Of a DNA stretch of 64,000 nucleotides, positions 4,201 to 21,464 are shown piece by piece. Origin of the DNA: a bacterium (GTDB lineage Bacteria > Electryoneota > RPQS01); contig JADJCU010000002.1 of assembly GCA_016703065.1 (NCBI GenBank), positions 142,797 through 206,796 on the forward strand, written 5' to 3'. Within the stretch, counting starts at the first letter, position 1, and each line of letters begins with the position of its first letter. Below the pieces are notes generated by a model that had not been told where the DNA came from, did no database searches, and saw nothing but the letters and a program-made list of their open reading frames with translations. Both the position numbers and the translations under genes were made by a program.

Positions 4201-4908
4201 GAGAAGAGCATCTCTGCGCATGCCGCATTCGGCCTGTTCCCAGCCAACAGCGTCGGCGATTCAATTGAGCTTTACACCGATGAGTCGCGCAAACATGTGT
4301 TGACCACATTCCATATGCTCCGCCAGCAAATGCAGAAGGACAAGAACTCGCCGAATCTATCACTTGCGGATTTTGTCGCTACGAAAGCGTCCGGCATCCC
4401 CGACTACATGGGCGCATTTTGCGTTACGGCAGGCGGCAACCTGACTGAACTCGTAACCGCGTACGAGTGCCAGCATGACGATTATCGCGCCATCATGCTG
4501 AAAGCTCTCGCCGATCGCCTCGCCGAGTCGTTTGCTGAGCATCTCCACGAGCGTGTCCGCCGCGAATTCTGGGGCTATGCGCCCGCCGAGTCGCTCACGA
4601 ACGAAGAGCTTATCAAAGAAACCTATCAGGGCGTTCGTCCCGCTCCCGGGTATCCCGCCTGCCCTGAGCACTCCGAAAAGCGCACTATCTTTGATCTGCT
4701 TCACGCCGAACAAAATTGCGGCATGACCCTCACAGAGCATTTCGCCATGCTCCCGGCGTCATCCGTCTCTGGCTTCTACTTCTCGCATCCGCAGGCAAAA
4801 TACTTCGGCGTCGGCAAAATCGCCGATGACCAGGTGCACGACTATGCCCATCGTAAGGGCATCTCCTTCGAGCAGGCCAAGCGGCTGCTCTCGGCAAATC
4901 AGGACTAA
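1228..4908 (+). pseudogene. metH: Cobalamin-dependent methionine synthase MetH, frame-disrupted (at least 4 frame changes; pseudogene or assembly indels)
   Basis: Five colinear pieces read as MetH:
- MTPWTRRSRIDALHRLAKER (from ATG 1228)
- LVLDGAMGSLIQ...
- RFVAGSIGPTNKT...
- [16 protein letters not shown]...[14 protein letters not shown], the pterin-binding part
- [16 protein letters not shown], the B12 motif [10 protein letters not shown], and the AdoMet-activation domain running to 4908
Frame changes lie near 1288, 1600, 1870 and 3178. Confidence 0.9.
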
Positions 4909-6457: not shown

Positions 6458-8395
6458 TTGGATAGATTGGAGTTTATTGTTCGCGAATTTTTCATAGCCT
6501 GTTGGGAGACGATCAAGCTTCCCTTCTGGCTCTTCGGAGTAGGGTGGAAGCGGCTGAAGGCCTTCGGACCGAGACGTATCGGGCTGGTCCTCTTCGCCAC
6601 CGCAATGGTCACTGTGGTCTCACTGCTGTTCTTTGTAAGAGTAACGTCGCAGCCTTCGTTTTGTAGGTCTTGCCACGTCATGGAGCCGTACTTCCAGGCC
6701 TGGGAAACCTCTACGCACAGCAACGTCACCTGTACCGAGTGCCATATCCCGCCCGGAATCGAAGGCACAGTGCATTCGAAGTTCTTGGCGATGTCAATGG
6801 TCGCCAACTATTTCACCGGCGTCTACAAGCGCTCCAAACCGTGGGCAGAGATCGATGATCGCAGCTGCCTGCGCTCCGGTTGCCACGACACACGTCTCCT
6901 GCAAAGTACGGAGAACTTCCGCGGTGTGATGTTTGATCACAAGCCGCACCTGGAGAATGTCCGTCGCGGCCGCCAACTGCGCTGCACATCTTGTCACGCG
7001 AATATCGTGCAGGGTGAGCACATCGCGGTCAACGAATCGACCTGCTTCCTTTGTCACTTCAAGCCCGATTCAGTCGGTCAAGCTACTGAACTGTCGCGTT
7101 GCACACACTGCCACAATCCGCCGCAGGGCGAAATGGCCGCCGATACGAGCTTCGACCACACCGAAATGCTTGCGCGAAAAACGGATTGTTCCAGCTGTCA
7201 CGCTACCGAAGTGGCGGGCGACGGTTTTGTTCCGCGCGAACGTTGCAACTCGTGCCACGCGCAGGTCGATCACATTCAGCGCTATGACGACCATGAATTC
7301 GTCCACCAGATACATGTGACCGATCGCAAAGTCGAGTGCACACAGTGTCATATTCAAATCCGTCACGGCAAGGAAGCGGTGCAGCTCGCCAGTGAAGAGC
7401 GCACCTGTGGCGAGTGTCACGGCGCTCCGGATAACGCGGTTGAACGGGTCTGGAAGGGCGATCTGCCCGGCCTCCCCCTGTCGCCGTCGTCAATGTCCCG
7501 CGCCGGAATGGCCTGCACCTCCTGCCACGTCGGTGAGATTCACACCAAGTCTGAAAGTCGCCCCAAGCCCGCCTGCATGCCGTGCCATGATGCCGACTAT
7601 GACAACCTCTGGCCGCTCTGGGCGGAGCCGATGACGCGCCATATCAGTGAACTCGAACAGCAGACGGCAAAGCTTGAGCCCGCTCTGCGTGACTCGATGC
7701 GCATCGCCTTGGAGTTGTACCGACGAGGTAACCCGCTCCACAACCCCGAGCTAATCAGGCTTCTGAGTGAGAAGATCACCGGGACCTCGACTCCCGGCGG
7801 CCAAGCCTGCGCAACCTGTCATCCGGGCGCTGCGAGCGCGGTCGTGGCCTACCATAATGGCACGTTCGACCATCGCAAGCATACAGCGCTTAAAGACTGT
7901 GCCCAGTGCCATGAGCCCGAGCGTAATGACCGCCACGGCAGACTGAAGCTCTCTGCAAACGAGTGCAATTCATGCCATCACGAGCCGCTGGCGAACGGCG
8001 AAACGGAGTGCGCCAGCTGCCACGCCACGCAGGCCGCCGTGTTTGCCGGCCGGGTCCCCGAGTTCGCGGCGGCCATGCCGTCGTTCAAAGTAGACCTTGA
8101 CGTGACCTGCAAAGACTGTCATAGCGTAAGCGGCGCCAACGTCTCTCGCGACGCCTCGTCGGCCTGCATCATGTGCCACGACGAGGACATTGCCGACACG
8201 CTTGCGCACTGGAAGACCGCATCCGTTCAAATGGCCAAACAGGTACAACACGCGCTGACTGCCTACCGGGCAGGCAGTGAACAATATAGAAGAAACCATC
8301 AATTCGCAGTCATGCTTCAGAAAGATGGGAGTGGGACTGCACATAATCCTGAACTATTCAAGCGGTGGTTTGAATCGCTTGGAGCGGCACAATGA
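6458..8395 (+). CDS. Membrane-anchored multiheme cytochrome c: NapC/NirT/NrfH-like N-terminus fused to a long multiheme extension (17 CxxCH + 1 CX4CH)
   Basis: 645 aa with an N-terminal TM helix (LVLFATAMVTVVSLLFFV). This is followed by CRSCHVMEPYFQAWETSTHSNVTCTECH, which is typical of NapC/NirT quinol dehydrogenases. Hand count gives 17 CxxCH, plus CLRSGCH. The start codon is TTG and uncertain. Confidence 0.85.
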   Translation: MDRLEFIVREFFIACWETIKLPFWLFGVGWKRLKAFGPRRIGLVLFATAMVTVVSLLFFVRVTSQPSFCRSCHVMEPYFQAWETSTHSNVTCTECHIPPGIEGTVHSKFLAMSMVANYFTGVYKRSKPWAEIDDRSCLRSGCHDTRLLQSTENFRGVMFDHKPHLENVRRGRQLRCTSCHANIVQGEHIAVNESTCFLCHFKPDSVGQATELSRCTHCHNPPQGEMAADTSFDHTEMLARKTDCSSCHATEVAGDGFVPRERCNSCHAQVDHIQRYDDHEFVHQIHVTDRKVECTQCHIQIRHGKEAVQLASEERTCGECHGAPDNAVERVWKGDLPGLPLSPSSMSRAGMACTSCHVGEIHTKSESRPKPACMPCHDADYDNLWPLWAEPMTRHISELEQQTAKLEPALRDSMRIALELYRRGNPLHNPELIRLLSEKITGTSTPGGQACATCHPGAASAVVAYHNGTFDHRKHTALKDCAQCHEPERNDRHGRLKLSANECNSCHHEPLANGETECASCHATQAAVFAGRVPEFAAAMPSFKVDLDVTCKDCHSVSGANVSRDASSACIMCHDEDIADTLAHWKTASVQMAKQVQHALTAYRAGSEQYRRNHQFAVMLQKDGSGTAHNPELFKRWFESLGAAQ

Positions 8396-8700
8396 CAACT
8401 CGCAAGACGACGAAAGCCTCCGCGAAAGGAGACGCTATGAACACCCTGCCTCGAACGCGCGTTAGTAAGCAGGCACGTACTGATGGTGGACCGGCCGCCC
8501 GAACGGCTGCTGAGTCTCCCCAAGGACTTCTGACTTTGTCAGAAGCCGCCGAGATGCTCGGACGCGTTCACCGTACCACAATCATGCGCTGGGTGCGTGA
8601 AGACCGCCTAAAATGTGTGCGTTTGTCACGCAAAGTCATTCTTTTTGAGCGCGACGAGATCACACGCTTCATCCGAGAGCATCGCGCAACGGGTCACTAG
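8392..8700 (+). CDS. Small helix-turn-helix DNA-binding protein (excisionase/MerR-like HTH_17 type)
   Basis: 102 aa. The segment LLTLSEAAEMLGRVHRTTIMRWVREDRLKCVRLSRKVILFERDEITRFI matches the excisionase-family HTH pattern. The start overlaps the cytochrome stop as ATGA. The N-terminal 45 aa are basic and low-complexity. Confidence 0.7.
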   Translation: MTTRKTTKASAKGDAMNTLPRTRVSKQARTDGGPAARTAAESPQGLLTLSEAAEMLGRVHRTTIMRWVREDRLKCVRLSRKVILFERDEITRFIREHRATGH

Positions 8701-9122
8701 GCAATTTCTTGCCTGCCATCGCCTTTTGCACGAGCAATTGCGCAAATTCGGCGAAAACAAGAGCAATCAAACCATCAAACGACCGTAATGAAGGGATACC
8801 GGATAAATTAATCTTCAATAATGCCTCCGTTTTGTGAAGACGTGAATTAGAGTATTTGAGTCTACAAATCTGAATTCTTTGTGCTTGAGGAACTGACCGT
8901 GCAAGGAGACAGACAGCCTCAGGTTGGTAAGAGTATTGCTGTTGGAGAAGAAGTTGTTTACAATTGGTGCAGTGACTTAGCATTGCGCTGAGTCGCAACA
9001 ATTCGACTACACAATGATCCTCCTACAGCGTCGAACCAACAACCGTATCAATGAGTTGCACTTCACTGCGACAAGCGTGACTTGCGGCCTTAATCAGACC
9101 AGACTTATCAACATTTATATTT

Positions 9123-9172
9123 CCCCCTGTGGATGCTCCACAGGGGGCGTTATATTCCGGTAAAGGCCGGAA
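9123..9172 (+). promoter_or_regulatory. Two adjacent stem-loops in the leader of the lipoprotein cytochrome gene
   Basis: CCCCCTGTGG-atgct-CCACAGGGGG (9123-9147) and TTCCGG-taaagg-CCGGAA (9155-9172), 45-90 nt upstream of ATG 9215. Function unknown. Confidence 0.35.
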
Positions 9173-9214
9173 CAACACTAAATGGGAGCAAGGCCCTAAC
9201 CCAGGGGTGCCAAA

Positions 9215-10933
9215 ATGAACCGTAAAAGACTACATCCCGCACTATTCCTGCTGATCAGCCTTCTAACCGTCGGCGTTGCGTTTATCGGCTGCGAAGGCGA
9301 CCAAGGTCCGGCAGGACCTTCCGGACTGAATCCTGATTCGGCGCCGATCATCACGGCGGTCGTCGCCGCACCGGATTCCGTCGGAACAGGCGAGAGCACG
9401 ACGCTGTTTGTCAGCGCCTATGATCCGAATGGCGACGCCATGACCTATCAGTGGTCGGCAACCAGCGGCACGCTGTCGAATCCGACTGCCGCCGTAACGA
9501 ACTACACGCCGCCCAGCGGCATCGGTCTCTACACGATAACCGTGACCGTTACCGACGCCGATGGAAGCACCTCCGGCACAGTAAACGTCGGCGTGAACAC
9601 CTACGTACCGTCAGTCTTCCCGAGCTTCTTGGGTGACAATGCCAACCGGTGCAGCCACTGCCACGAAGCCAAGGTCTCGGGCTGGGAAACAACGCACCAT
9701 GCCGAAGCTTACGCGTCACTCGTAGCCTCTGCCTCTGAGAACAACCCGTACTGCTTGCAGTGTCACACCACCGGATGGGACGACATCGTTGCCTTTGATG
9801 GCAGCGTCACCACTCCCGGCGTGGACAACGGCGGCTACGATGACTATGCAAATGTCAATCTGCGCAACGTAACCTGTGAAGCCTGCCACGGCCCGATGGG
9901 CCCGGACTTCTCGTCCCACGAACCGGACATTGAACTTGTCTCCCGCGGCGAAACCTGTAATCGCTGCCACTCGCAGTACGAAGAATACCAGACTTCGGGT
10001 CACGGTCATGCGATCGAAGTGGCCGGTGGAGTGGAAGAGTTCAACACAGAGTTTAATCGGTCAAGCTGTAACTTCTGCCATATCTCCGAAGGCTTCATCA
10101 AGAAGTGGGATCCCGACTGGGCCGACCGTGCCGTCCCGGCCGACGGCTGGCAGGTCTCCTGCGCAACATGCCACGACGTGCACTCGCTCAACGCCGAGAA
10201 CAACCCCGCCTACTTGCGCGGCCTCGATGAATTCCCGATCGTGTACGCCGGTCCGGATCATCCCGACACACTGTGGATTCCGAACGAAGAAGAAGGCTAC
10301 CTGAGCTTCGGCAAGGGCCAGCAATGCGCCCAGTGCCACCACGCTCGCCGCAACGAAGCCAACATCAATGGCCAGATCAACAACGGCTCGGCTCACCCCG
10401 GTCCGCACGCATCGTGTCAGGCCGATATGATTATCGGCCGCGGCTCATACGAAATTCCGGGCAAGACCTACGTCCGTGAGTCCCCGCACCAACCGGATAC
10501 CGAAAGCGGCGAGACTTCTTTGGAGAATATGTGCGTGACCTGCCACGTTCACACGATTCCCGGCGACACCCCCGGACACGACTATCACGGCCACAGCTTC
10601 GCCCCGGTCGTTGAAGCCTGTCAGCAGTGCCACGGTACCGGCAGTGATTTCGACTACCACGGCAAACGTACCGAGATTCAGGAGTTGATGGATTCCCTGT
10701 TCGCCATGTTGCAGAACGACGGCGCTGAACCGATCTTCGATACGACGCTCACTGAGCGTTACGAGCGTGAAGCCGCCTACGCCTGGTTCTTCGTCAACAA
10801 CGAAGGCTCGATGGGTGTCCACAACTACCCCTACGCACATTCGCTTCTGACCAACGCCATCGACCATCTGCATGAGAATGGCGCTGCGATCACCGAACCG
10901 AAGCCGACCAAGTTCGCGTTCTTCAAGAACTAA
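9215..10933 (+). CDS. Lipoprotein multiheme cytochrome c (9 CxxCH) with N-terminal PKD/Ig-like domain
   Basis: 572 aa. Signal peptide plus lipobox (LLTVGVAFIGC). An Ig/PKD-like segment (YDPNGDAMTYQWSATSGTL...YTITVTVTDADGST). Then nine CxxCH motifs (CSHCH...CQQCH). Confidence 0.85.
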   Translation: MNRKRLHPALFLLISLLTVGVAFIGCEGDQGPAGPSGLNPDSAPIITAVVAAPDSVGTGESTTLFVSAYDPNGDAMTYQWSATSGTLSNPTAAVTNYTPPSGIGLYTITVTVTDADGSTSGTVNVGVNTYVPSVFPSFLGDNANRCSHCHEAKVSGWETTHHAEAYASLVASASENNPYCLQCHTTGWDDIVAFDGSVTTPGVDNGGYDDYANVNLRNVTCEACHGPMGPDFSSHEPDIELVSRGETCNRCHSQYEEYQTSGHGHAIEVAGGVEEFNTEFNRSSCNFCHISEGFIKKWDPDWADRAVPADGWQVSCATCHDVHSLNAENNPAYLRGLDEFPIVYAGPDHPDTLWIPNEEEGYLSFGKGQQCAQCHHARRNEANINGQINNGSAHPGPHASCQADMIIGRGSYEIPGKTYVRESPHQPDTESGETSLENMCVTCHVHTIPGDTPGHDYHGHSFAPVVEACQQCHGTGSDFDYHGKRTEIQELMDSLFAMLQNDGAEPIFDTTLTERYEREAAYAWFFVNNEGSMGVHNYPYAHSLLTNAIDHLHENGAAITEPKPTKFAFFKN

Positions 10934-10991
10934 CTACTCAGGCTTAAGCGCCTGCGGGCCTCATCGCCCGCCGACGCCCATTCTTAGCGGC

Positions 10992-11028
10992 GGCGGATTC
11001 CTTGCAATGCTATGGCAAGGAATCCGCC
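10992..11028 (+). terminator. Strong intra-operon stem-loop (attenuator, partial terminator or processing site)
   Basis: Perfect 14-bp stem GGCGGATTCCTTGC-N9-GCAAGGAATCCGCC between the 572-aa cytochrome stop (10933) and the barrel start (11064). It is followed by ccGCGCATTTTC. Confidence 0.45.
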
Positions 11029-11063
11029 CCGCGCATTTTCAGAAGGGAAATAATCGCACAACC

Positions 11064-12308
11064 ATGCGAATATCCAAGTCTATGCAGATGTTACTGCTGT
11101 TAACTCTGCTTCTCGGAATCGTCGGCCCGCCGTGGACGACCGACGCTGCCGCCGCGCCCACGTTCACGGGCCGAGCCGGACTCTGGTCATACGTCCGCGA
11201 TGATTCCGTCGACCATGTCCAAATCGTCCCGCTGCTCAGCCTAAACGTCAATCGCTTGGGCTGCAGCGAAGAGTGGGCCGTCGAAACTACCTTCCGCGGC
11301 TTCGCAGACTATCAGAATGGCGCAACCAACGGCTCGGCCGTCTTGCGTGCTCACCGTGCCGTGATCATCTGGAAAACCGAAGGTACCGGCTGGGAACTGC
11401 GCGGCGGTCAACAGTGGGTGAGCGAAGGCATCGGTCGCGGCAACGACGTCGGACTCTGGAGTCGCCACGAGTTTAGCCGCAAGACCGACCTCCGCGCCTA
11501 TGTCGGCGCGCGCCTTCCCAATACGCTCGCCTTCGATCACGCGATTCCCGAAACCGGCATGACCGGAGGACTGAATTTCCGCACGAAATTCGGCCCGCGT
11601 CAACTCGGCCTGTCATACTTCTACGTCGGCGACGATGCCCGCGTCTTGTTCTCCGGGTTGGGCTTCGACTACTTTTGCGCATCACTCACCGATGTGACGA
11701 TTCGTATGCGCTTGCACATGAATCTCGAGCAGGAAGCCATCGAGACCGGCCAACTCTCCGTATACTGGCAGACCAATGACAAACTCTTGATCAACGCCGA
11801 CGTGCGCTCGCAGACTCCGCGCATCTTCGAGGACTCCTTCTTCTCAATCTTCCTCGACGAAGCCAAGACCAACACCGCCCGCGCGGGTGCTGAATACGAA
11901 TTCTACAGGCACTTCTTCGCCACCGGAATGGGCTATCTCGTCTTCACGGAAGAGGACATGCTCTACAAGACTCGCCTCGGCCTTGGGTGCAAAAAGATTG
12001 AAGTCGGCTACACCCACTGGCTCTCTGCCGGTAAGGGCGACATGGACGGCTTCTACGGCGAAATCAAGCACGGCTGCAAGGCGCTCGACGGCTACGCAGG
12101 CTTTGACTACGCGCGCGGTTCAAACAGTGAAATTCGCCCCAACAGCGAGGATCAAGTCATCTTCGCCGGCCTCGATTGGTCGCCCAAGTCGTACTTCACG
12201 ATTGGCGCGCGCGGCGAACACTTGAAAGACAGCGAGCGCAGTGAAGACTTCCGCGCTCTCTTTTCGCTCATGACCACGTTTAAGTCAGGCGTAAGGAGCG
12301 GATCATGA
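11064..12308 (+). CDS. Putative outer-membrane beta-barrel (porin-like partner of the cytochromes)
   Basis: The internal ATG at 11064 gives the signal peptide MRISKSMQMLLLLTLLLGIVG...AAAAP. Many alternating amphipathic strands are present (LGLSYFYVG, IRMRLHMNL, LSVYWQT, GAEYEFY, IEVGYTHW, GYAGFDYA, VIFAGLDWS). There is an aromatic near-terminal strand, ALFSLMTTF. No heme motifs. Confidence 0.6.
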   Translation: MRISKSMQMLLLLTLLLGIVGPPWTTDAAAAPTFTGRAGLWSYVRDDSVDHVQIVPLLSLNVNRLGCSEEWAVETTFRGFADYQNGATNGSAVLRAHRAVIIWKTEGTGWELRGGQQWVSEGIGRGNDVGLWSRHEFSRKTDLRAYVGARLPNTLAFDHAIPETGMTGGLNFRTKFGPRQLGLSYFYVGDDARVLFSGLGFDYFCASLTDVTIRMRLHMNLEQEAIETGQLSVYWQTNDKLLINADVRSQTPRIFEDSFFSIFLDEAKTNTARAGAEYEFYRHFFATGMGYLVFTEEDMLYKTRLGLGCKKIEVGYTHWLSAGKGDMDGFYGEIKHGCKALDGYAGFDYARGSNSEIRPNSEDQVIFAGLDWSPKSYFTIGARGEHLKDSERSEDFRALFSLMTTFKSGVRSGS

Positions 12309-13081
12309 GAACCATGGTGATTCTTTTCACGCTCTGCGCGGCCTCCGCATTTGCGTCTGAACACGCGCTCGTCGGCTCCGACGGCAAATTACCTTCGGCC
12401 TTCAAGCATGACGTCCACATCGAGCAGGGCGTCACCTGCGCCGCCTGTCACGTCGGCGTGGAAACCAGCGTCAAGGGCACGGACAACCTGATGCCCCTCT
12501 GGTCCGTCTGCTCCGACTGCCACTCACCCGAAGACGTCGCCAACAAGGGCGTCGCATTGGGCGAGCAAAAAGACGGCTTCGTCTATAAGACCGTAACCAA
12601 CTACAGCCCGATCTTCCGTCATCAGCGCCATCTCGAGAAAGCCAAACTGGACTGCAACGTCTGCCACGCGAATCTCGATCAACCCGTCGCCGACGGCAAG
12701 CGCGGTCACTTCCCGCTGATGTCCGACTGCATGTCATGCCACGAGCAGCGCTCAGTGCATCGCGATTGCAAGACCTGCCACCTGCCCGGCGAAAAGCTGA
12801 CTCCCGACGATCACAATCTAATGTGGGATCAGCGTCACGGCTTGGCCTCAACCGCTCCCGATGCGCAGTGCATGATGTGCCACATCAGCGGCACGAAGCT
12901 CGACTGTCAGGCCTGTCATCAGGGCGACGCGGTGATCAATCCGCATCCGCGCAACTATCTCCGAAGCCATGGTCAGGACGCGCATCTTTCGGACTTCCGC
13001 TGTGGAACCTGCCACGAGCAGCGCAGCTTCTGCGTCGACTGTCACCGCGACATTCACCCTCGCCTTCATCTCGTGCAGTGA
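12305..13081 (+). CDS. Periplasmic multiheme cytochrome c (9 CxxCH, c3/c7-like spacing)
   Basis: 258 aa with a Sec signal (MRTMVILFTLCAASAFASE). Nine CxxCH motifs, many in the F.H..H....C..CH context. The start overlaps the barrel stop as ATGA. Confidence 0.85.
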   Translation: MRTMVILFTLCAASAFASEHALVGSDGKLPSAFKHDVHIEQGVTCAACHVGVETSVKGTDNLMPLWSVCSDCHSPEDVANKGVALGEQKDGFVYKTVTNYSPIFRHQRHLEKAKLDCNVCHANLDQPVADGKRGHFPLMSDCMSCHEQRSVHRDCKTCHLPGEKLTPDDHNLMWDQRHGLASTAPDAQCMMCHISGTKLDCQACHQGDAVINPHPRNYLRSHGQDAHLSDFRCGTCHEQRSFCVDCHRDIHPRLHLVQ

Positions 13082-13892
13082 AGATCGTGTCACCGAAAGC
13101 TACGACACGCATCCGAGTAACTGGATGGATCCGTTTAGCCCCGACTGGCATGGACAAGCGGCAATTGGTTCAAGTGGTGCGAGCTGCTTGGATTGCCATG
13201 CGATCAGTAGCGCCTCGAATAGCATGAACGGTGAAGGCGCAAGTGCCGCGACACCGACGGCAGGTGCTGCCTGCTATGATTGCCACTCTTATCCGCATGT
13301 CGCGGACATGAATCGATCACATGCCGAGCACTTCCGCACTCTGCAGAACTGGTCAACGGTCAGCAACTGTCGATCCTGTCACGGTGCGGACTTCGCCGGA
13401 GGCCGCAGCGGCGCGAGCTGTAACGAATGCCATACGCAGCAGGGTGGACCCGCGGCGTGCAACACCTGTCACGGCATGCCACCCACCACGACTCGTCCCA
13501 TTGGCGGCTACAACCCCGGCGTACATGCCGCGCATTCGCGCTATGCCTGCACCGAGTGTCATGCTCGCGTGAATGGCTTGGATCATATTGACGCGTTGCC
13601 TGCCGATGTGTCGTTCGAGAATGCTCGCATCTCAAATCAACACGGCTATCCTGTGAGCTACGAGAGTCTCGGCGGCGGCAACGGGACGTGCGCTACCTAC
13701 TGTCACTCGGACTTGCACAGCGGTCCGCCGCGCGTCGCGGTGGCTTGGGCAGCTGGCCAGACATTAACAACGTGTGTCTCGTGCCATTCCGTGCCGCCGG
13801 TGTCGGACTTTCATCCAAACAATCCGCGCTGCCACGAGTGCCATCTGAACATCGATCCGGAATTCGAACTACAACAATCCGAACGCGATTAG
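12969..13892 (+). CDS. Lipoprotein multiheme cytochrome c (8 CxxCH + 1 CX3CH), Geobacter-type C..YCH...CxxCH..PP repeat
   Basis: Lipobox FTLAFISC near the N-terminus. The motif GTCATYCHSD...W....TCVSCHSVPP resembles the Geobacter CxxxxCH...CXXCH domain. The start is uncertain: ATG 12969 or GTG 13002, and both overlap the upstream gene by 80-113 nt. Confidence 0.7.
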   Translation: MVRTRIFRTSAVEPATSSAASASTVTATFTLAFISCSEDRVTESYDTHPSNWMDPFSPDWHGQAAIGSSGASCLDCHAISSASNSMNGEGASAATPTAGAACYDCHSYPHVADMNRSHAEHFRTLQNWSTVSNCRSCHGADFAGGRSGASCNECHTQQGGPAACNTCHGMPPTTTRPIGGYNPGVHAAHSRYACTECHARVNGLDHIDALPADVSFENARISNQHGYPVSYESLGGGNGTCATYCHSDLHSGPPRVAVAWAAGQTLTTCVSCHSVPPVSDFHPNNPRCHECHLNIDPEFELQQSERD

Positions 13893-13975
13893 GTTCTTGC
13901 CCGGCGACACCCTTCACGTAAACGGCGTCGTCAACGCGATCTTCCCCGGATAATCGCCATCTGCCTTGAAATAGC

Positions 13976-14017
13976 AAGCGGCCCGGCATACGAGAGATGT
14001 CGGGCCGCTTCATTTCC
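13976..14017 (+). terminator. Terminator-like hairpin after the plus-strand cytochrome operon
   Basis: 10-bp stem AAGCGGCCCG-N15-CGGGCCGCTT followed by CATTTCC. The T-tract is weak. Confidence 0.55.
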
Positions 14018-14760
14018 GCTCCGCTCTCCCCCCAAAGTTGCCGCAACTTTGGGGGACAAAGGGGGGCCTCTGGCCGGAATCTCAAGCGCTAGCGCAACCA
14101 GTCCAGCGGCACGCTAGCTCCCCTTCTCCGTTTACGGGGAAGGGGCGGGGGATGGGGTTTTGCCTCCGCTCGTCGGGGCGGCAGAACAGGCAGCCCGTCT
14201 CGTAAGGATGCCGCCCGCCCTCCGCTCTCCCCCAAAGTTGCCGCAACTTTGGGGGGACAAAGGGGGCCTCTGACCGGAATCTCAAGCGCCAGCGCAACCA
14301 GCCCAGCGGCACGCTAGCTCCCCTTCTCCGTTCACGGGGAAGGGGCAGGGGGATGGGGTTTTGCCTCCGCTCGTCGGGGCGGCAGAACAGGCAGCCCGTC
14401 TCGTAAGGATGCCGCCCGCCCTCCGCTCTCCCCCCAAAGTTGCCGCAACTTTGGGGGGACAAAGGGGGGCCTCTGACCGGAATCAGGAGCGCCAGCACAA
14501 CCAGTCCAGCGGCACGCTGGTCTCCCCCCAAAGTTGTCTGCAACTTTGGGGGGACAAAGGGGGGCCTCTGACCGGAATCAGGAGCGCCAGCACAACCAGT
14601 CCAGCGGCACGCTGGTCTCTCCCCAAAGTTGCCACAACTTCGGGGGGACAAAGGGGGCCCTCTGACCGGAATCAGGAGCGCCAGCACAACCAGTCCAGCG
14701 GCACGCTGGTCTCTCCCCAAAGTTGCCACAACTTCGGGGGGACAAAGGGGGGCCTCTCGC
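14018..14760. repeat. Nested tandem array of palindrome-bearing repeats (2 units of ~200 bp, then ~3.5 units of ~94-95 bp)
   Basis: Six copies of the 27-nt palindrome CCCCCAAAGTTG-ccg-CAACTTTGGGGG are centred near 14042, 14242, 14444, 14538, 14633 and 14727. Each is followed by conserved sequence that includes a second hairpin, CCAGCG-gca-CGCTGG. The 200-bp units carry an extra ~105-bp structured insert. Confidence 0.9.
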
Positions 14761-14796
14761 GCCTCCCCACTTATTGCCCAAATGTATAACATATTG

Positions 14797-14824
14797 ATTA
14801 TAATTGATTGTCTATATTTGACAA
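14797..14824 (-). promoter_or_regulatory. Near-consensus sigma70 promoter pointing into the repeat array
   Basis: On the minus strand: TTGTCA-N16-TATAAT (11 of 12 consensus positions) within an AT-rich island. No ORF lies downstream, only the repeat array. Confidence 0.45.
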
Positions 14825-14846
14825 ATCCCGATTTATGTATTATATT
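14818..14846 (+). promoter_or_regulatory. Near-consensus sigma70 promoter with no downstream ORF (orphan; possible ncRNA or antisense transcript)
   Basis: TTGACA-N17-TATATT (11 of 12) with an AT-rich upstream region. Its -35 overlaps the -35 of the minus-strand promoter. About 350 nt of non-coding sequence follow before the 3' end of the convergent gene at 15206. Confidence 0.45.
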
Positions 14847-15205
14847 AGCGTCAGCTAACCAAACAAAACCGCCCCGGAGGAACCCGGCGGAAGAGGCCAA
14901 CCACACGGCCTGAACGGGCGGTCCAGTCTGATCAGCAAAGAACTTGTCGTGCTGGCACGCCCCTCCAAGTACCTGCGGGGAAACCGAGACCACTACAACA
15001 GACGACCGCTTAGAAAACACTCATTGTAAGCGTAAACGCAGCGCCTGCGGGTCCAGCGTCTACGCTGGAAAAGAAAGCGGCCTCAGCTTTCGCCGAGACC
15101 GCCACTACATCAATCGTCCAATCATCAGCGAAGCGCATTAGGTCCAGCGGTACGCTGGCCAAGGCCGCAGGTGCAGGACCCAACCCGGCTTCCGCCGGAG
15201 CTTGT

Positions 15206-17698
15206 CTACCCAAACATCGAGTAGAGAATAAACACTAACAACACCAATCCAGTAAGAAACGCTAGCCAGCCCCACGTCGAGAGCACGATCTTGTGCCACC
15301 GTTTCATAGGCGGAACAATGTGACCGTCGAGCTTGCCTTCGTTGACCAACTGCTCAATCTCCCGCGGACGTTCACGTTCAAGCTCTTCAGTCGACTCACG
15401 GCCCGTGAAGATCACATCGTCAAACGGGAACTTCGACGGACGCAAATGCCCGTTGAAGAAGTGCACAGTGAAGATGAATGCCGTCGCCAGCAGTGCCTCT
15501 TCACTGTGAACAATGTGCGCCAGATTGATCATCCAGCCCGGCAGCAGTTGCGTGAAGAACTCCGGATACCACAGAATGAAACCGCTTGACCCAATGATCA
15601 CGACACCCCAGAAGACCGCGAAGTAGTCGAACTTCTCCCAGTAGGTGAACTTACCAAAGCGCGGTTTCGGACCAAGACCCAGGAAATAACGGAAGTGGCC
15701 GAACATATCCTTGGCGTCTTGAACCTGCGGAACCATCGAACCATCACCCCAGAACAGTCCGCGCTTCTTCTGAATCAGCGCCGCATAGAGAAGACTCAGA
15801 ACGTGCAGAATGAAGGTCGCGATCATCAGTATAGCGCCGACGCGATGAATAATTGCCATCTCGCGCAAACCGATGACGTGGTTGGTAATCCAGTAAGCCG
15901 CTTCCGAATGCGAGAACTTGAGCGGCAAACCAGTCATTGCCTGCACCAGGAAGCTCGAGGCCAGCGTGATGTGCAGCGTCCGCTGCCATGGTGAGAAGCG
16001 GCGAACCCACTTGCGCATCACTTCGGGCGTCCGCTTCGGTCGGCCTTCGATCAAGCCGCGAATGAACCACAGAATCGTGTGCAGTCCGAAGAATCCGAAA
16101 ACTCCAAACAGCAGCGAGGTCATGAACTTCTCCGCGACCGTTACGTTGCTCTGCGGAGCCGTCGCGCCCTCGCCGCCGCCGTGCGGGTCGTAATGTGACA
16201 AGAACTGTACGAAGTTCTCGTTTGCGTCCTTGTGACAGCGCGCGCACGTCTGAATGATCTTGTCCCGGCTGACCTTCGATTCCGGATCGTTTTGACTTCT
16301 GATGTCGTGATTGCCGTGACAATTCACGCATGTTGCAAAGTCGTCGCCCTGATAGCCAAGGTTGTACGCCTGTCCGTGATACGTCCGTTCGTAGGAGCGG
16401 ACAACTTCCGGATTGAGTTGGAATTTCAGCGCGAAGTCGCGGTTGCCGTGACACTTGCTGCACATGTCGATGATGTGCCGGGGCCGCATGTCGTCGCTGA
16501 CCTTCTTGATATCTTTGTCTCCGTGACACGTCACGCACGTCGGCGCCTCGGTGTGACCTTTGGCGTAAGCAATGCCGTGCTCGGACTTCATGTACTCCTG
16601 ATATTCCGTCGGATGGCAGTTTTCGCACTGCATCCTTAGGTTCGACTTTGGCTCTTCGCCCGCGACCTTCCTTCTGAAGTGATAGACGTGACATTGCGTG
16701 CAGTTTGCGATGTCACCGGTCTCGGTTTGCGTCATCACCTTGCCGTGCGCGAGGAACTCCTTGGCGTGTCGCTCGCCTTCGTGACAGCGGTTGCACGTTG
16801 CCGGGAGCTGCTCGCGGAAGATGCCTCCGCCGGCATGAACCATCTGCGTTTGGTGGCCGGTGTGGCAGGCGACGCAGGTCATCAGTCTTGCATCGACACT
16901 GTCTTTGCGATGCAATGACTCTTCGTATCCGGTATGGCAGGTTGCGCAAAGTGCGTCCAATCGTTCCACGGACGCGTGCGACGCCGGATCACTTGGTGAC
17001 AACACACCATGTTCGCCGTGGCATGTGACGCAGTTGGGAGCGTCCAAATCGCCGCTCTTCAGCTTGTTGAAATGCTGACTGGCGACGTAGTTCTTGGTTT
17101 CGCTCTTGTGGCACTCCATGCAGCCGTGCACGTTGTATTCGCGCCACTCGGCCACCGACATGCTGTCGCGCCGCGATTTGAAATGCGGGTCATGACACGA
17201 CGTGCAGCTCATTTGCGCGCTGGCCGCCTTGCCCGTTCTCGAGTGCACGCTCTTATCAAAGGCTTCAAGTTCAGTCCGGTGGCAGATTCCGCACACCCGT
17301 CTGGAGTCCGCATGATCGGTAATCTGGTGCGAACCGTGACAGTCCGAGCATTCAGGAACGCCGCGGAACCCCATCGCATTCAGCTTGTTGAAGAAGCCGG
17401 CCATGAAGGTCTTCATTTCGGCATCATGGCAGGTGCCGCAGTTAACCTCACGCGGTCGCTCGTGCGGGAATTCCGCGCTTTTCAGATCGGCGTGGCAGTC
17501 AATGCAGTCCAGACCTTCGTGAACGGAGCCTTTCAGGCTGTCCGTCGTCACGCAGAGGAGTTTTTTGCCCGTCAGCGTCTCGGAGGTGAGCGTAGGGTCG
17601 TTGTGGCAATCCATGCAGTCGTTGTTGGTTTGCGCTCGCAACGGAACGCCAACCATCAGTACTGCAAGAACGAGGAGAATCTTGGCCTCTAAGGTCAT
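15206..17698 (-). CDS. Fusion protein: 17-heme c-type cytochrome domain + C-terminal membrane cytochrome-b domain (CbcL-like, FdnI/HydC-type)
   Basis: 830 aa with a signal peptide and 17 CxxCH motifs in the first ~520 aa. These are followed by about 5 TM helices with conserved His (LHTILWF, LHITLASSF, IHRVGAILMIATFILHV, AHIVHSEEALLATAFIFTVHFF). Confidence 0.85.
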   Translation of the reverse strand: MTLEAKILLVLAVLMVGVPLRAQTNNDCMDCHNDPTLTSETLTGKKLLCVTTDSLKGSVHEGLDCIDCHADLKSAEFPHERPREVNCGTCHDAEMKTFMAGFFNKLNAMGFRGVPECSDCHGSHQITDHADSRRVCGICHRTELEAFDKSVHSRTGKAASAQMSCTSCHDPHFKSRRDSMSVAEWREYNVHGCMECHKSETKNYVASQHFNKLKSGDLDAPNCVTCHGEHGVLSPSDPASHASVERLDALCATCHTGYEESLHRKDSVDARLMTCVACHTGHQTQMVHAGGGIFREQLPATCNRCHEGERHAKEFLAHGKVMTQTETGDIANCTQCHVYHFRRKVAGEEPKSNLRMQCENCHPTEYQEYMKSEHGIAYAKGHTEAPTCVTCHGDKDIKKVSDDMRPRHIIDMCSKCHGNRDFALKFQLNPEVVRSYERTYHGQAYNLGYQGDDFATCVNCHGNHDIRSQNDPESKVSRDKIIQTCARCHKDANENFVQFLSHYDPHGGGEGATAPQSNVTVAEKFMTSLLFGVFGFFGLHTILWFIRGLIEGRPKRTPEVMRKWVRRFSPWQRTLHITLASSFLVQAMTGLPLKFSHSEAAYWITNHVIGLREMAIIHRVGAILMIATFILHVLSLLYAALIQKKRGLFWGDGSMVPQVQDAKDMFGHFRYFLGLGPKPRFGKFTYWEKFDYFAVFWGVVIIGSSGFILWYPEFFTQLLPGWMINLAHIVHSEEALLATAFIFTVHFFNGHLRPSKFPFDDVIFTGRESTEELERERPREIEQLVNEGKLDGHIVPPMKRWHKIVLSTWGWLAFLTGLVLLVFILYSMFG

Positions 17699-17711
17699 TA
17701 ATCGGATCGCG

Positions 17712-20189
17712 TTACTTGTGATTCGATTCGGTTTCGGGAGTAGTCTTCGACCCTTCGTCTGCAGCTTCGCCGCCCGGGGAAGTGAGTTTCTCGTACCAGC
17801 GGCGATGCCGGTGTTTGACGAGGTCGAGGGAGATCTTACCGGTGAGCCACGTCCAGCTCATCGGATACTCTTCGGGATGGAAGATCACGAAGAAGAAGTG
17901 CCAGACGACGATGGCGAGCGTCGCCAGCCAAGCCTCGTAGAGGTGAATGGTCTGGCTAACTGGCACGGCCCACGCGGGCAACAGCGGGGAGAGTTCTGCG
18001 GGAAACCATAGGACGAATCCGGTCGCGATCATCAGGATCGTTCCCCAGATGAGGGCCCAGTATTCGGCCTTCTGTGAATAATCGTAGCGGTCAAATCTCG
18101 GGGCTTCTTTCGACCTATTCAAATGGTAGGCCATGTTGCCGGTCATCTCAGAGATATCGGACTTACCGGGCAGCAGCGCGGACCATTCTTCACGTCCTCG
18201 TCGGGTCATGAAGAGATAAACAACATGATAGACCGAACATCCGATCAGCCCAATGGCCATGACGCGGTGGGTGACGCTGCGAATGCCTTCATCAACACCG
18301 ACCATGGCCAGGAGCTTCACCCACCATGCTTCAGGGTATTTCAAGGCGAAGCCTGTGACCGCGAGTAGAATAAAGGTCACGGAGAGCGCCATGTGCTGAA
18401 TGATCTGGTGCTTGTCAAACCGCGTGACCTTCTTGCCGGCCGTCTGATGTTCTTTGGCTTTGGCGAGATGGTAGTTCAGGATGACGAGATTATGCAGGAC
18501 CATTCCGCCGATAACGACGATGATCATGATCCAGTAGATGCGCGCAATCCACCACTGGGCGCCGCCTTCGGTCGGCTGGAGTGCCTGATGGGTGTACGAC
18601 TGGGCGAAATTCGCGTCCGCCTTGGGATGGCATTTCGCGCACGTTTCCACAAGATTGCTCTTGTAGATGGACGATAACGAGTCGTTTGCCGTGCGCACGT
18701 CATGAGCGCCGTGGCAGTCGTTGCAAGTCGGCGTCTTGTCGTCCTTCGCGACGGTCGCGAGTCCATGATAGCTATCCGTGTAAGTCGAGACCACATCCGG
18801 TGCGAGACCATACTTGCGGATGATATCGGGGTCTTCGTGACACTTACCGCATGTTTCCGCCGCGATCTTCGCATGACTGACTTTGCTCTTGGGGTCTTTC
18901 GGCGAGATCAGCAGGTGTTCGCCGTGGCACCCGGTGCAGGTCGGGCTGTCATAGATTCCGCTGCTCAGCGCGCGATAGTGAATCGAGACCTCATAGAGGT
19001 CTTTTTCATCTGTATGACACTGGCCGCACGTCTTGTGAATATTCTGAATATTGATCGTCGAATTGGGATTGCTGCTTCCGAGCACGGCGTGACCGCCGTG
19101 GCAGTCGATGCAAACGGGAACGTCCTGGTTCCCCTGCTGCAGCAGTTTGCCGTGTGTGCTTTCGAGATAGTTCTCGAACGAGCGCGGCAGTCTCACATCC
19201 GGATCCAGGGCAATCCCGATTTGACTGTGGCATGTGGCGCACGTGGAAACCTGATTGCCGCGGTGCATCGGCGACTCGGGGTCCGATACTTTGCGGATGT
19301 TGTGCGCTCCGTGACAGCTCTCGCATCTTGGGGCGCGGGGTGAACCGCTGGCAAGCGCGTAAGCATGCAGGCTCATATTGTAGCGGCGCACGGATTCCGC
19401 ATGGCACGCACCGCAGGTCGCTTCAGCGGGAGATTCATTCGTCACGCGCAAAGACGTATCGGAGGGAGCTCGACTGCGGTGTTCGCCGTGGCAGTCGAAG
19501 CAATGCGAGAGATTGCGGCCTTCGTTGAATTGCCCGTGGACGGACTTCTTGAACTCAGCCTGAATATCCTGATGGCAATTCAGGCAGGCCTGTTCGAGCA
19601 TCTGAGGTTGCTTGTCTTCGGCATGCACAGAGTGTGAGCTATGACAATCGGTGCAGCTCGGCAGGCCCTCCTTGCCGGAGTTGGCCAGACGACCGTGAAT
19701 ACCGACGTCATAGCTTGCATACGACGCGGTGCGTCCGTGCCGCGGTACGTGAAGCCTGTTGTGGCACTGTTCGCACGTCTGATCGATTCGTTCTTTGGAG
19801 ACTTTGGCGTTACCGTTCTTGGTGCCGAGTACGTTGTGCGTGCCATGGCAAGCCGCGCACTTCAGCACGCCCTCGTGACCACCTGAAGCGACTTGTGCGG
19901 CGGCGTCTTTGTGACATGCGGCACAGTCCACCGCCTTGAGCTTCTCGTCATGGGGGAAATCGTCAAAGCCCTTGAGGTCGGCGTGACAGGCGACGCATGC
20001 GAGCGCGGCATGTTTTGAGCGTGACAGCGAATCGGACGTCACGCACAATGAGACGACTGAACCATCCGGATTTGTCCTTGTCAGGGAAGCATCGGAGTGG
20101 CAGTCGACACAGGCCGCATCATCACCCGCATAGGCGGGGGCGAGCAGGCACACGAGCAGGAGCAGGGGATAGATGAGGAGACGGTTCAT
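17712..20189 (-). CDS. Paralogous 17-heme cytochrome c::cytochrome b fusion (CbcL-like)
   Basis: 825 aa with the same architecture as the downstream gene. 17 CxxCH motifs, then TM helices with His (HNLVILNYH, IIQHMALSVTF, THRVMAIGLIGCSVYHV, IHLYEAWLATLAIVVWHFFFVIFH). Confidence 0.85.
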   Translation of the reverse strand: MNRLLIYPLLLLVCLLAPAYAGDDAACVDCHSDASLTRTNPDGSVVSLCVTSDSLSRSKHAALACVACHADLKGFDDFPHDEKLKAVDCAACHKDAAAQVASGGHEGVLKCAACHGTHNVLGTKNGNAKVSKERIDQTCEQCHNRLHVPRHGRTASYASYDVGIHGRLANSGKEGLPSCTDCHSSHSVHAEDKQPQMLEQACLNCHQDIQAEFKKSVHGQFNEGRNLSHCFDCHGEHRSRAPSDTSLRVTNESPAEATCGACHAESVRRYNMSLHAYALASGSPRAPRCESCHGAHNIRKVSDPESPMHRGNQVSTCATCHSQIGIALDPDVRLPRSFENYLESTHGKLLQQGNQDVPVCIDCHGGHAVLGSSNPNSTINIQNIHKTCGQCHTDEKDLYEVSIHYRALSSGIYDSPTCTGCHGEHLLISPKDPKSKVSHAKIAAETCGKCHEDPDIIRKYGLAPDVVSTYTDSYHGLATVAKDDKTPTCNDCHGAHDVRTANDSLSSIYKSNLVETCAKCHPKADANFAQSYTHQALQPTEGGAQWWIARIYWIMIIVVIGGMVLHNLVILNYHLAKAKEHQTAGKKVTRFDKHQIIQHMALSVTFILLAVTGFALKYPEAWWVKLLAMVGVDEGIRSVTHRVMAIGLIGCSVYHVVYLFMTRRGREEWSALLPGKSDISEMTGNMAYHLNRSKEAPRFDRYDYSQKAEYWALIWGTILMIATGFVLWFPAELSPLLPAWAVPVSQTIHLYEAWLATLAIVVWHFFFVIFHPEEYPMSWTWLTGKISLDLVKHRHRRWYEKLTSPGGEAADEGSKTTPETESNHK

Positions 20190-20192
20190 GAG

Positions 20193-21296
20193 TTATTTCA
20201 TCTTAGTTCCCGGCAGCGCTGCAGGATACGAGATATCCGCATCGTGGCAGCCGGAACACGTAGGAGTAAGCGCAAAATTACGATTCGGATGACACTCTTC
20301 ACAGGAGATTTCGACGTGTTCTTCGTTCAGCGAGAGGCCGGCAAGTTTGTGATTGAACGACTTCATGTCCCACGACTTGTGGCACGAGTTACAGTCGGGT
20401 GAAGGCTTCGTGAAATGATGCGAGTTTCCGTGGCACCGTTTGCACGACAACCGTTCGTGGTAACCTTTGAGCGGCCAGCCGGTACGATCATGCGAGAAGG
20501 CCTTTGCCTCAGTTTTGAGGTGACACTGATCACAGCTCATTTCGGCATGGCAGGAGTTGCAGATGCCATGCAGGGCCTCTTCGCTGTGGCGGATCTCTGT
20601 GGTAGTCTGATCCGACTTAGCATGGCAGGACGCGCAACCTTCGGCGTGGTGACAAGAGGCGCAGTCAATGCCGTATTTGTCGGTATGATTGCGATGGAAC
20701 AGGGTTACGACGGTGCCTCCGCCGTAGGTTGAGTTCCAGACTTTCTTTTCAGGCTGGACGAGACCTTTGAAACGACTTCCCGACTTGGGCATTCCGGCAT
20801 GCGCAGGCGGAGTTTCGCCCTTCTTGACATGGCAGATCTCGCAGGCGGTGTCGTGGCTCCAGTCCTGATGGCATCCAAGACACTGGCGGTGATAAGCGCC
20901 TTTTAAGCTCGGTTGTTCGAGGTTATCATCGGCGGCATCAGGCGGGTGGCAGTTTTTGCAGGCGGTGATGCCACCGATTTCCTGAAAGTGGTGGCAATCT
21001 TGACAGCCGCGATCCATGGCCGTCATTTCGGCATGGAGGCGATGTGAAAAGTCAACGGGCTCGTATTCGGCTTCGATTTCGTTTATTAGAATCCGATCGG
21101 GTCCCAATTTCAGTTCCTGCGGCGTAACACGCGGTCGGGGACAGCCGCGCAGGCAGGGATCTTCAAGGGTTGGGGTGCTGCAGACGTGACATTCAGTACA
21201 GCCGTTCGTAACTTTCGAAGGTTGTGCTTTGGCCAGAGAGTTATCGCTATACAGTAGCAGCGCGAGGAGTGCAGCGATGAGTGAGAATAATTGCAT
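20193..21296 (-). CDS. Periplasmic 13-heme cytochrome c (c3-family, Hmc/Nhc-like)
   Basis: 367 aa with a Sec signal (MQLFSLIAALLALLLYSDNSLAKA). 13 CxxCH motifs by hand count, with F.H..H contexts. Confidence 0.85.
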   Translation of the reverse strand: MQLFSLIAALLALLLYSDNSLAKAQPSKVTNGCTECHVCSTPTLEDPCLRGCPRPRVTPQELKLGPDRILINEIEAEYEPVDFSHRLHAEMTAMDRGCQDCHHFQEIGGITACKNCHPPDAADDNLEQPSLKGAYHRQCLGCHQDWSHDTACEICHVKKGETPPAHAGMPKSGSRFKGLVQPEKKVWNSTYGGGTVVTLFHRNHTDKYGIDCASCHHAEGCASCHAKSDQTTTEIRHSEEALHGICNSCHAEMSCDQCHLKTEAKAFSHDRTGWPLKGYHERLSCKRCHGNSHHFTKPSPDCNSCHKSWDMKSFNHKLAGLSLNEEHVEISCEECHPNRNFALTPTCSGCHDADISYPAALPGTKMK

Positions 21297-21323
21297 GGCC
21301 GGATTGCTCCGACTCTCTATGGT

Positions 21324-21449
21324 TTAGTATTTACGGGTCGAACGCTTGTTTAAGGCCTTCCAAAAGGGAACGAAGGAGAGGAGCCCAAGAATGGCCACGA
21401 TATACTCTCCAGCCTGAGTAACAAGGGTGAACTCATGTAGTGTATGCAT
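21324..21449 (-). CDS. Unannotated 41-aa single-TM ORF between the NrfD-like and 13-heme genes
   Basis: Not in the ORF track because it is shorter than 60 aa. My translation is MHTLHEFTLVTQAGEYIVAILGLLSFVPFWKALNKRSTRKY. GAGAGGA lies about 8 nt upstream of the ATG. It has a hydrophobic core and a basic tail and fills the only gap in a tightly packed operon. Confidence 0.5.
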   Translation of the reverse strand: MHTLHEFTLVTQAGEYIVAILGLLSFVPFWKALNKRSTRKY

Positions 21450-21464
21450 AGTGGTCGTCCTCTC

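Follow-up and report, generated by a model that had tools for sequence, protein, structure and literature searches.

The question raised by positions 11064-13892 of the DNA analysed here is whether three adjacent genes encode a porin-cytochrome (Pcc) system that conducts electrons through the outer membrane. The stretch under study, referred to throughout as the window, comprises 64,000 nucleotides (positions 142,797 to 206,796, forward strand) of contig JADJCU010000002.1, from assembly GCA_016703065.1 of a bacterium assigned to the Electryoneota (RPQS01). Open reading frames (ORFs) and motif counts define three co-oriented genes at this locus, encoding in order a heme-free barrel, a Sec-exported multiheme cytochrome and a multiheme cytochrome bearing a lipobox. 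A preliminary description, made from the sequence alone, had viewed these as an outer-membrane barrel, a periplasmic cytochrome and a lipoprotein cytochrome, arranged in the order of the Geobacter genes ombB-omaB-omcB. That reading holds for the architecture, and we place the probability that the trio represents a Pcc-type trans-outer-membrane electron conduit at roughly 0.65. The module itself is real and conserved, and its proposed function is plausible at the level of the family.

Three proteins and their conserved order

The Pcc class (Liu et al. 2014, Shi et al. 2014) has been delineated as a porin of 18-22 strands, a periplasmic cytochrome of 5-14 hemes and an outer-membrane cytochrome with 1-15 CxxCH motifs, sometimes accompanied by atypical CX3-15CH motifs (PMC4245776). 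The first gene of the trio (11064-12308, forward strand) encodes the predicted porin. Its ORF of 414 amino acids (aa), from ATG 11064, contains no CxxCH motif and begins with a signal-like N-terminus (MRISKSMQMLLLLTLLLGIVG...AAA), in agreement with the exported, heme-free barrel of about 415 aa that had been proposed. An AlphaFold2 model, based on a 40-sequence alignment, places 22 beta-strands after the signal helix (pLDDT 82.1, pTM 0.71), within the range given for Pcc porins; no soluble or non-barrel fold, the outcome named beforehand as contrary to the assignment, was seen. When this model was compared with PDB by Foldseek, the top 50 matches were all outer-membrane barrels (probability 1.00, TM-scores 0.28-0.57), among them AlgE, OprD/Occ, MOMP, chitoporin and the PapC/FimD usher pores; MtrB was not among these 50. 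The protein matched no Pfam or NCBIfam family, its profile found no sequence relative in PDB even at E <= 10, and a few members of the 40-sequence alignment gave weak, generic porin matches. The most conserved motif of the family, recognized from invariant alignment columns, spans residues 248-268 (11805-11867, forward strand) and comprises R248, the invariant P252, R253, E256 and S258, and F260. It sits in a loop modelled with low confidence (pLDDT <50 for residues 252-267), which could possibly face the lumen or contact a partner protein.

The start codon of the second gene (12305-13081, forward strand) lies on the TGA of the barrel gene, forming the ATGA overlap at 12305-12308 that had been described at the first junction. 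The ORF, its heme motifs and an alignment of relatives identify the product as a multiheme cytochrome truncated at its C-terminus. A signal-type N-terminus and the absence of a lipobox bear out the original reading of Sec export; the Cys of the signal peptide (FTLC) was considered as a lipobox and rejected, as Leu occupies position -1 and the Cys is missing from relatives. The designation of this protein as a 9-heme cytochrome is accurate for the 258-aa ORF as it stands, in which 9 CxxCH motifs occur, but represents a truncated count: relatives have 10-13 such motifs (11 in the closest ones) in 284-353 aa, and the proteins encoded at the three related loci L001, L002 and L003 measure 293-301 aa. 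The counts in the window and in relatives alike fall within the 5-14 CxxCH motifs of an adjacent, Sec-exported, non-lipoprotein Pcc cytochrome. A structural model of the protein was mediocre (pLDDT 69). By sequence, its only matches in PDB were of the ActA type, from alternative complex III (ACIII); no MtrA appeared among its PDB sequence or fold matches, and TIGR03508, the DmsE/MtrA decaheme family, scored 21.3 bits against a cutoff of 192.2.

The third gene (12969-13892, forward strand) is an ORF of 307 aa when read from ATG 12969, with a lipobox-like FISC, eight CxxCH motifs and the atypical motif CATYCH at 13689-13706, as had been reported. The source annotation gives a product of 296 aa (P0047), which fits a start at GTG 13002, and the sole database entry for this product is that of the window's own contig. 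Conserved coding begins only at the codon of the lipid-bearing Cys (13074-13076; Cys36 of the ORF). The resemblance of the C-terminal region to a Geobacter-type CxxxxCH/CxxCH domain was substantiated by hidden Markov model searches, in which residues 233-283 (13665-13817, forward strand) scored 34.4 bits against TIGR01904 (cutoff 27), and the protein also passed the threshold of PF09698 (24.1 bits, cutoff 21.7). The first motif of this domain takes the form C-x3-CH here (CATYCH), and this atypical spacing is kept in at least 95% of the 33 members of the family. A PDB sequence search with the protein gave no meaningful match.

All 33 of these relatives carry a canonical lipoprotein signal peptide and lipobox, yet they vary widely in length (299-723 aa) and in their numbers of CxxCH (6-21) and atypical motifs (1-3). 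Despite the lipoprotein being the most variable partner of the trio, the lipid Cys and an HP..W...FHG segment are always present. Position +2 after the lipid Cys is Ser in 27/33 and position +3 is Glu or Asp in 30/33; the window lipoprotein likewise has Ser, and not Asp, at +2, so that the inner-membrane retention raised as an objection in the preliminary description finds no signal here. The family consensus, C-S-[E/D]-[D/K]-[R/K]-x, is similar in charge and position to the surface-lipoprotein export signal of Bacteroidetes, which is K-(D/E)2 or Q-A-(D/E)2 immediately after the lipidated Cys (PMC5080379), but does not match that published consensus. As a family, these proteins conform to the Pcc outer-membrane cytochrome (1-15 CxxCH, with CX3-15CH allowed); the window protein retains just its lipobox and mature part, the core of the signal peptide having been deleted.

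Evidence for a functional unit also comes from the linkage of the three genes. A sequence search recovered 46 close homologues of the barrel, and a profile search extended the family to 493 representative clusters (50% identity) at E <= 1e-3, of which 249 were found at E <= 1e-10. A total of 46 loci were fetched, and gene order was assessed in those long enough, about 35/46. In every one of these, a barrel gene is followed on the same strand by a 10-13-heme cytochrome and a lipoprotein cytochrome, over a range of barrel identity from 92% to 22%; even a locus from a more distant barrel subfamily (L046) retains a barrel, a 13-heme cytochrome and a 16+3-heme lipoprotein in that order. The concern that homologues might never be syntenic is thereby decisively answered. 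Overlap of the barrel stop with the start of the second gene, of the ATGA type, recurs in many relatives, consistent with the clustered, co-oriented and conserved organization of Pcc loci.

All named carriers are uncultured metagenome-assembled genomes (MAGs), most of which bear the title Calditrichaeota, Caldithrix, Calditrichaceae, Rhodothermales, Bacteroidota or plain 'bacterium', with two distant loci titled Deltaproteobacteria and Kofleriaceae. Close homologues of the whole cluster also occur in 'binchicken' third-party annotation (TPA) MAGs (L004, L005, L009, L011, L016, L017, L019, L020) titled 'uncultured Alphaproteobacteria bacterium'; these titles look like placeholder or erroneous taxonomy. 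Sequence searches with each of the three proteins returned only the names 'hypothetical', 'cytochrome c3 family' and 'CxxxxCH/CxxCH domain', from MAGs, and the clusters of 10 distant barrel relatives were likewise without informative names. Single-protein genome scans with two distant barrel relatives returned no locus for one (P0160) and, for the other (P0123), only its own MAG, in which the same trio is found.

Relationship to characterized conduits and a model of electron transfer

The closest organizational counterparts are OmbB-OmaB-OmcB and OmbC-OmaC-OmcC of Geobacter sulfurreducens, which have the same gene order and a small regulator gene upstream (PMC4589669, PMC4282303). The Geobacter barrel, with 20 predicted strands, is of the same size class as the 22-stranded barrel modelled here, and the CxxxxCH/CxxCH domain is common to OmcB-type proteins and the third gene product. 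Heme numbers differ, with 8 + 12 in Geobacter, 11 + 9 in intact relatives of the present cluster and 9 + 9 in the window. Also unlike the Geobacter Pcc loci, the regulator is of HTH_17 type and a gene for a PKD-domain cytochrome intervenes between it and the trio; moreover, the host lineage differs from Geobacter at the level of phylum, and neighbouring genes encode proteins with sorting domains of the type IX secretion system (T9SS). The parallel with OmbB, OmaB and OmcB that had been drawn therefore stands for order and architecture, while nothing in our data demonstrates homology. The likeness is organizational, and the OmcB and Ext conduits of Geobacter themselves lack homology to one another (PMC6148476). 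Shi et al. (2014) searched for members of the class by BLAST similarity (E < 0.01) to OmbB, OmaB or OmcB; the one indirect link to those proteins in our data is the TIGR01904 domain of the third gene product.

The Ext conduits invite a similar comparison. ExtEFG and ExtABCD combine a barrel of 18-21 strands, a periplasmic cytochrome of ~12 hemes and one or two small lipoprotein cytochromes (PMC6148476), a set similar to that described here, which, as in ExtABCD, possibly includes two surface lipoprotein cytochromes (the third gene product and the PKD protein). The gene order is unlike that of either Ext cluster; as the Ext clusters are themselves mutually non-homologous, the likeness is again one of design. 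In both settings the surface lipoprotein is the most variable part, a pattern reported for Desulfuromonadales and seen here in the wide span of lengths and heme counts among relatives. The MtrCAB (Shewanella), MtoAB and PioAB systems follow the same design, in which a barrel sheathes a periplasmic multiheme cytochrome that is joined by a surface lipoprotein cytochrome, and the ~20 hemes of intact relatives equal the 20-heme wire of MtrCAB (PMC4282303). Membership in the MtrB/PioB family was not found: none of the 40 members of the barrel alignment (0/40) matched the MtrB/PioB model, even at E <= 1, and the 22 modelled strands contrast with the 28 predicted trans-membrane motifs of MtrB (26-28 for the family). 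The third gene product, at ~300 aa, is also far smaller than MtrC.

Outside the proteobacteria, a Pcc cluster has been described in Ignavibacterium album (IALB_1839-1838-1837), consisting of a porin, a 14-heme periplasmic cytochrome and an outer-membrane cytochrome with atypical heme motifs (PMC4245776). 'Pcc-like' clusters have likewise been noted in MAGs of Ignavibacteriales and Caldithrix, and putative systems for extracellular electron transfer in Caldithrix MAGs from Chocolate Pots (PMC6137239). Our genome scan with the barrel alignment recovered no locus titled Ignavibacterium, and the genome paper on Caldithrix abyssi describes no such cluster. With 'Pcc-like' systems already reported elsewhere, the trio adds to a known class and does not constitute a new one.

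A mechanism can be proposed on the pattern of MtrCAB and of the Pcc complex of Geobacter. The 414-aa protein would form a wide, roughly 22-strand outer-membrane barrel sheathing the Sec-exported cytochrome, which would reside in the periplasm and, with the 11 hemes of intact close relatives, insert into the barrel. The lipoprotein cytochrome (8 CxxCH + 1 CxxxCH), anchored by its lipid in the outer leaflet, would cap the barrel-cytochrome pair, docking probably through its conserved N-terminal segment, Cys-Ser-Glu/Asp-...-HP..W...FHG. The resulting wire of ~20 hemes (11 + 9 in intact relatives) could be linked to the quinone pool through the NapC/NirT-type 17-heme protein, the two CbcL-like proteins and the Hmc-like membrane module encoded nearby, and could exchange electrons outside the cell to or from minerals, humics or partner cells, with the PKD-domain 9-heme lipoprotein as an additional surface component.

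Several considerations weigh against this interpretation. Association of the three proteins in one complex, together with its topology, surface exposure and direction of electron flow, is something that we infer. Exposure of the lipoprotein at the surface is argued solely from the residues following its lipid Cys. In Pfam, NCBIfam and PDB searches, the barrel and the two cytochromes show no sequence link to characterized conduit components except generic TIGR01904 and c7 motifs, and the fold search with the second gene product gives only weak matches to the ActA-type pentaheme subunit of ACIII, and not to MtrA. Finally, the window copy as written would yield no intact conduit.

If the architecture is accepted, the flow of electrons could still be inward, with Fe(II), minerals, cathodes or a syntrophic partner supplying the quinone pool, as in MtoAB and PioAB. 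No feature of the window fixes direction, and modules of the CbcL/MtoC and NapC/NirT types occur in metal reducers and oxidizers alike, their sequences not being direction-specific (PMC6295460). We nevertheless consider inward flow unlikely, in that no link to a terminal oxidase or to carbon fixation was seen beside the cluster, and the MAGs that harbour relatives belong to lineages, such as Caldithrix, known for anaerobic heterotrophy (PMC6137239), both of these being weak evidence. Less probable again is an arrangement that lacks a trans-membrane wire, with the barrel serving as an ordinary porin for solutes, or as a channel for export, on one transcript with a periplasmic redox system and the lipoprotein facing the periplasm from the inner leaflet of the outer membrane. 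The best fold matches of the barrel are indeed to solute and polymer channels and ushers in place of MtrB, the weak hits of a few family members are to generic porins, and the second protein resembles a periplasmic ACIII subunit. A generic porin would be unusual, however, in maintaining linkage to the same two cytochromes in every sufficiently long locus across very deep divergence, frequently with the stop codon of one gene overlapping the start of the next; the 22-strand barrel also exceeds typical diffusion porins of 16-18 strands, its top conserved motif lies in a flexible loop and not in a solute-selectivity constriction of known type, and the acidic residues after the lipid Cys resemble surface-export signals of Bacteroidetes (PMC5080379).

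Within the interpretation of the trio as a Pcc-type conduit, we tentatively suggest that it may define a distinct, unnamed porin-cytochrome lineage, so far encountered only in uncultured MAGs and sharing no common descent with the Geobacter or Shewanella conduits, although we would not yet favor this over a less exclusive view. Such a lineage would be recognized by a barrel of 22 strands in which a P-R-x-x-E-x-S loop is invariant, by a periplasmic cytochrome of 11-13 hemes, and by a size-variable surface lipoprotein cytochrome that always carries the Cys-Ser-Glu/Asp ... HP..W ... FHG docking segment and that would be delivered to the surface via a Bacteroidetes-type lipoprotein export signal, not by type II secretion as in Shewanella.

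Lesions in the window copy

The most unusual-looking features of the cluster, a long overlap between the second and third genes and an odd signal peptide in the latter, result from damage or mis-assembly. Lesions in the trio were called against L002, a contig from a Joint Genome Institute (JGI) metagenome that encodes a barrel 92% identical to that of the window. Nucleotide alignment to L002 locates a deletion junction at 13054-13060 (forward strand), where 222 + 18 = 240 nt of the reference are missing and the body of the second gene is fused, out of frame, to the end of the third gene's signal peptide. The overlap of 80-113 nt described at this second junction is thus present in the ORFs (ATG 12969 or GTG 13002 versus the stop at 13081) but is non-native, being a product of the deletion. 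At the native junction in L001, L002 and L003, the two genes overlap by ~11 nt and the third begins with a textbook signal peptide; relatives in general show an overlap of that length or a short gap. The missing DNA encodes the ~45 last residues of the second protein, including two CxxCH motifs (...FDLESCMSCHDTPN.EPTCARCH) that are present in 25/25 aligned relatives, and the deletion also takes the start codon, the n-region and most of the h-region of the third gene's signal peptide. What appears to be a signal peptide in the window (MVRTRIFRTSAVEPATSSAASASTVTATFTLAFISC) is mostly the second gene read out of frame, and its hydropathy over positions -15 to -4 is 0.98, versus a median of 2.66 (minimum 1.67) among the 33 relatives.

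A second lesion affects the other end of the lipoprotein gene. Alignment to L002 reveals one extra nucleotide at 13859 and a resulting +1 frameshift (13859-13953, forward strand), beyond which the conserved C-terminal 30 codons (NSNYNNPNAIRFLPGDTLHVNGVVNAIFPG) are intact in the next frame, at 13861-13953, ending in TAA at 13951-13953. Similar damage is found in a housekeeping gene of the same window: in metH (1871-4905), which encodes methionine synthase, a 1-nt indel around 3172-3175 breaks the reading frame in two relative to L001 and L003, between ...KGKAKEK and AELEWR.... A break of this kind suggests either that some indel errors persist in the assembly or that the gene has recently begun to decay. 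Ratios of nonsynonymous to synonymous substitution rates (dN/dS) between the window and L002 are 0.08 for the barrel, 0.08 for the second gene and 0.13 for the mature part of the third, whose last 150 codons give 0.03. Purifying selection has accordingly prevailed over essentially all of the divergence, which implies that the lesions arose very recently or else reflect faulty assembly. The sequence of the deletion junction had no exact match in metagenome or genome contig collections.

It is highly improbable that the long overlap is genuine and evolved, with the third gene expressed from ATG 12969 or GTG 13002 through a novel signal peptide and the 9-heme protein a functional short variant, for although the frame is open for 35 codons upstream of the lipobox with a basic start (MVRTRIFR), and the source's gene caller accepted the 296-aa product, the two C-terminal hemes and the canonical signal peptide are universal among the aligned relatives (25/25 and 33/33), the hydropathy of the h-region falls far below that of any family member (0.98 versus >= 1.67), the same gene has lost its conserved tail to the frameshift at 13859, the frameshift in metH at about 3173 points to sequence errors or recent decay and not to design, and the junction occurs in no other assembly searched.

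A short GC-rich palindrome (e.g. CCCCCCCAGTCCTCTGGGGGGGCAAGGGGGGG) lies precisely between the stop of the second gene and the true start of the third in L002 (3590-3645), L005 and L007, where it inflates the called N-termini of the lipoproteins, and the corresponding spot is deleted in the window. Such a palindrome might constitute a hotspot for deletion or mis-assembly. In the MtrCAB structure, the C-terminal heme of MtrA is located at the outer end. If this polarity applied here, by analogy, the two deleted hemes would be those passing electrons to the lipoprotein, and the window copy would then be non-functional twice over.

The surrounding redox island and the biology of the family

The trio lies within an island of redox genes that is conserved in L001. 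Upstream on the forward strand, a gene at 6458-8395 encodes a 645-aa cytochrome with 17 CxxCH motifs, one CxxxxCH and a membrane-anchored N-terminus of NapC/NirT type (PF03264, 40.7 bits), a candidate inner-membrane quinol dehydrogenase that is also found in L001 and L003-L008. Overlapping its end by 4 nt is a gene, conserved in L001 and L003, for a small DNA-binding protein of the HTH_17/excisionase family (8392-8700, forward strand), a possible regulator. Next on this strand, at 9215-10933, is the 9-heme PKD-domain lipoprotein mentioned in the preliminary description; domain and motif searches recovered the PKD/Ig domain, nine CxxCH motifs and a lipobox (FIGC, with Cys26) in its 572 aa. This candidate second surface cytochrome is conserved in the closer subfamily only. 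Its residues 143-253, and a 191-aa tetraheme protein encoded at 23818-24393, match the C-terminal ~110 residues of NCBIfam NF041198, 'UshA-like (seleno)protein' (E = 5e-21 and 5e-29, respectively), which suggests a c554-like heme module common to both.

Two hairpins on the forward strand bracket the cluster. One with an 18-bp stem, between the PKD-cytochrome and barrel genes (10987-11032; -36 kcal/mol, z = -3.5), is a possible attenuator, terminator or stabilizer. The other, terminator-like and just past the native stop of the third gene (13976-14010; -32 kcal/mol, z = -3.6), has an equivalent after that stop in L002 and marks the end of the transcription unit. A scan for sigma-70 promoter and terminator consensus sequences performed no better than with shuffled sequence. 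Beyond the second hairpin, the convergent intergenic gap is filled at 14015-14760 by a unit of 95-200 nt that is directly repeated in five to six copies. Each copy has a palindromic core rich in GC (CCCCAAAGTTGCCGCAACTTTGGGG; 5 sites, where chance would give 0), followed by AGCRCAACCAGTCCAGCGGCACGCTRG. This array looks like an element of the REP/MITE (repetitive extragenic palindrome/miniature inverted-repeat transposable element) kind, and a 312-aa minus-strand ORF at 14082-15020 is probably an artefact of the repeat. An Rfam scan of 8600-15300 returned only a sub-threshold match to the small RNA BjrC68 (15068-15147, minus strand; 26.6 bits versus 39), most likely the intrinsic terminator, a hairpin with a T-run, directly downstream of the gene for an 830-aa protein.

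That protein belongs to a tandem pair of CbcL-like fusions recognized by domain matches on the minus strand (15206-20189), of 830 aa (15206-17698) and 825 aa (17712-20189). Each carries 17 CxxCH motifs followed by a di-heme cytochrome b membrane domain (Ni_hydr_CYTB/FdnI-like), an architecture described for CbcL (PMC6295460); the two share only ~30% identity, and each is conserved in L001. By analogy with what has been proposed for Geobacter quinol oxidases, they may be specialized for different redox potentials. In pathways of extracellular electron transfer, proteins of the CbcL and NapC/NirT types have been proposed to oxidize quinol or to reduce quinone (PMC6295460). An Hmc-like module follows on the same strand (20193-24393), comprising a 13-heme cytochrome of 367 aa, an HmcC/NrfD-like subunit of 413 aa, an HmcB-like 4Fe-4S subunit of 315 aa and the c554-like tetraheme protein of 191 aa. 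The HmcC/NrfD-like and HmcB-like subunits scored 499.7 and 401.2 bits against cutoffs of 550 (equivalog) and 420, respectively, and the iron-sulfur subunit has a twin-arginine-like N-terminus. Farther along, at 24955-27231 (minus strand) and at 28549-30837, 31200-35105 and 35469-39380 (all plus strand), are encoded two large proteins rich in Cys, which carry T9SS type A C-terminal sorting domains, and a pair of paralogous S8 (subtilisin-like) peptidases, each of ~1,300 aa; the T9SS-sorted neighbours suggest a Bacteroidota-related lineage.

These observations bear first on the quality of automated annotation, which would be misled by the lesions in the cluster and in metH, as illustrated by the count of nine hemes, the extended gene overlap and the unusual signal peptide. 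Their broader significance concerns the respiration of minerals, electrodes and partner cells, which Pcc conduits serve in Gram-negative bacteria and for which very few lineages, chiefly Proteobacteria and Desulfuromonadia, have furnished experimentally characterized examples. In the otherwise variable lipoprotein cytochrome, the N-terminal segment that is conserved provides a concrete candidate for a docking interface. The barrel, in turn, represents a family that matches no Pfam or NCBIfam model, encompasses 493 representative clusters (50% identity) and is always accompanied by these two types of cytochrome; by virtue of that constant association, it could mark extracellular electron transfer among lineages of sediments that go under the label Calditrichaeota or similar ones.

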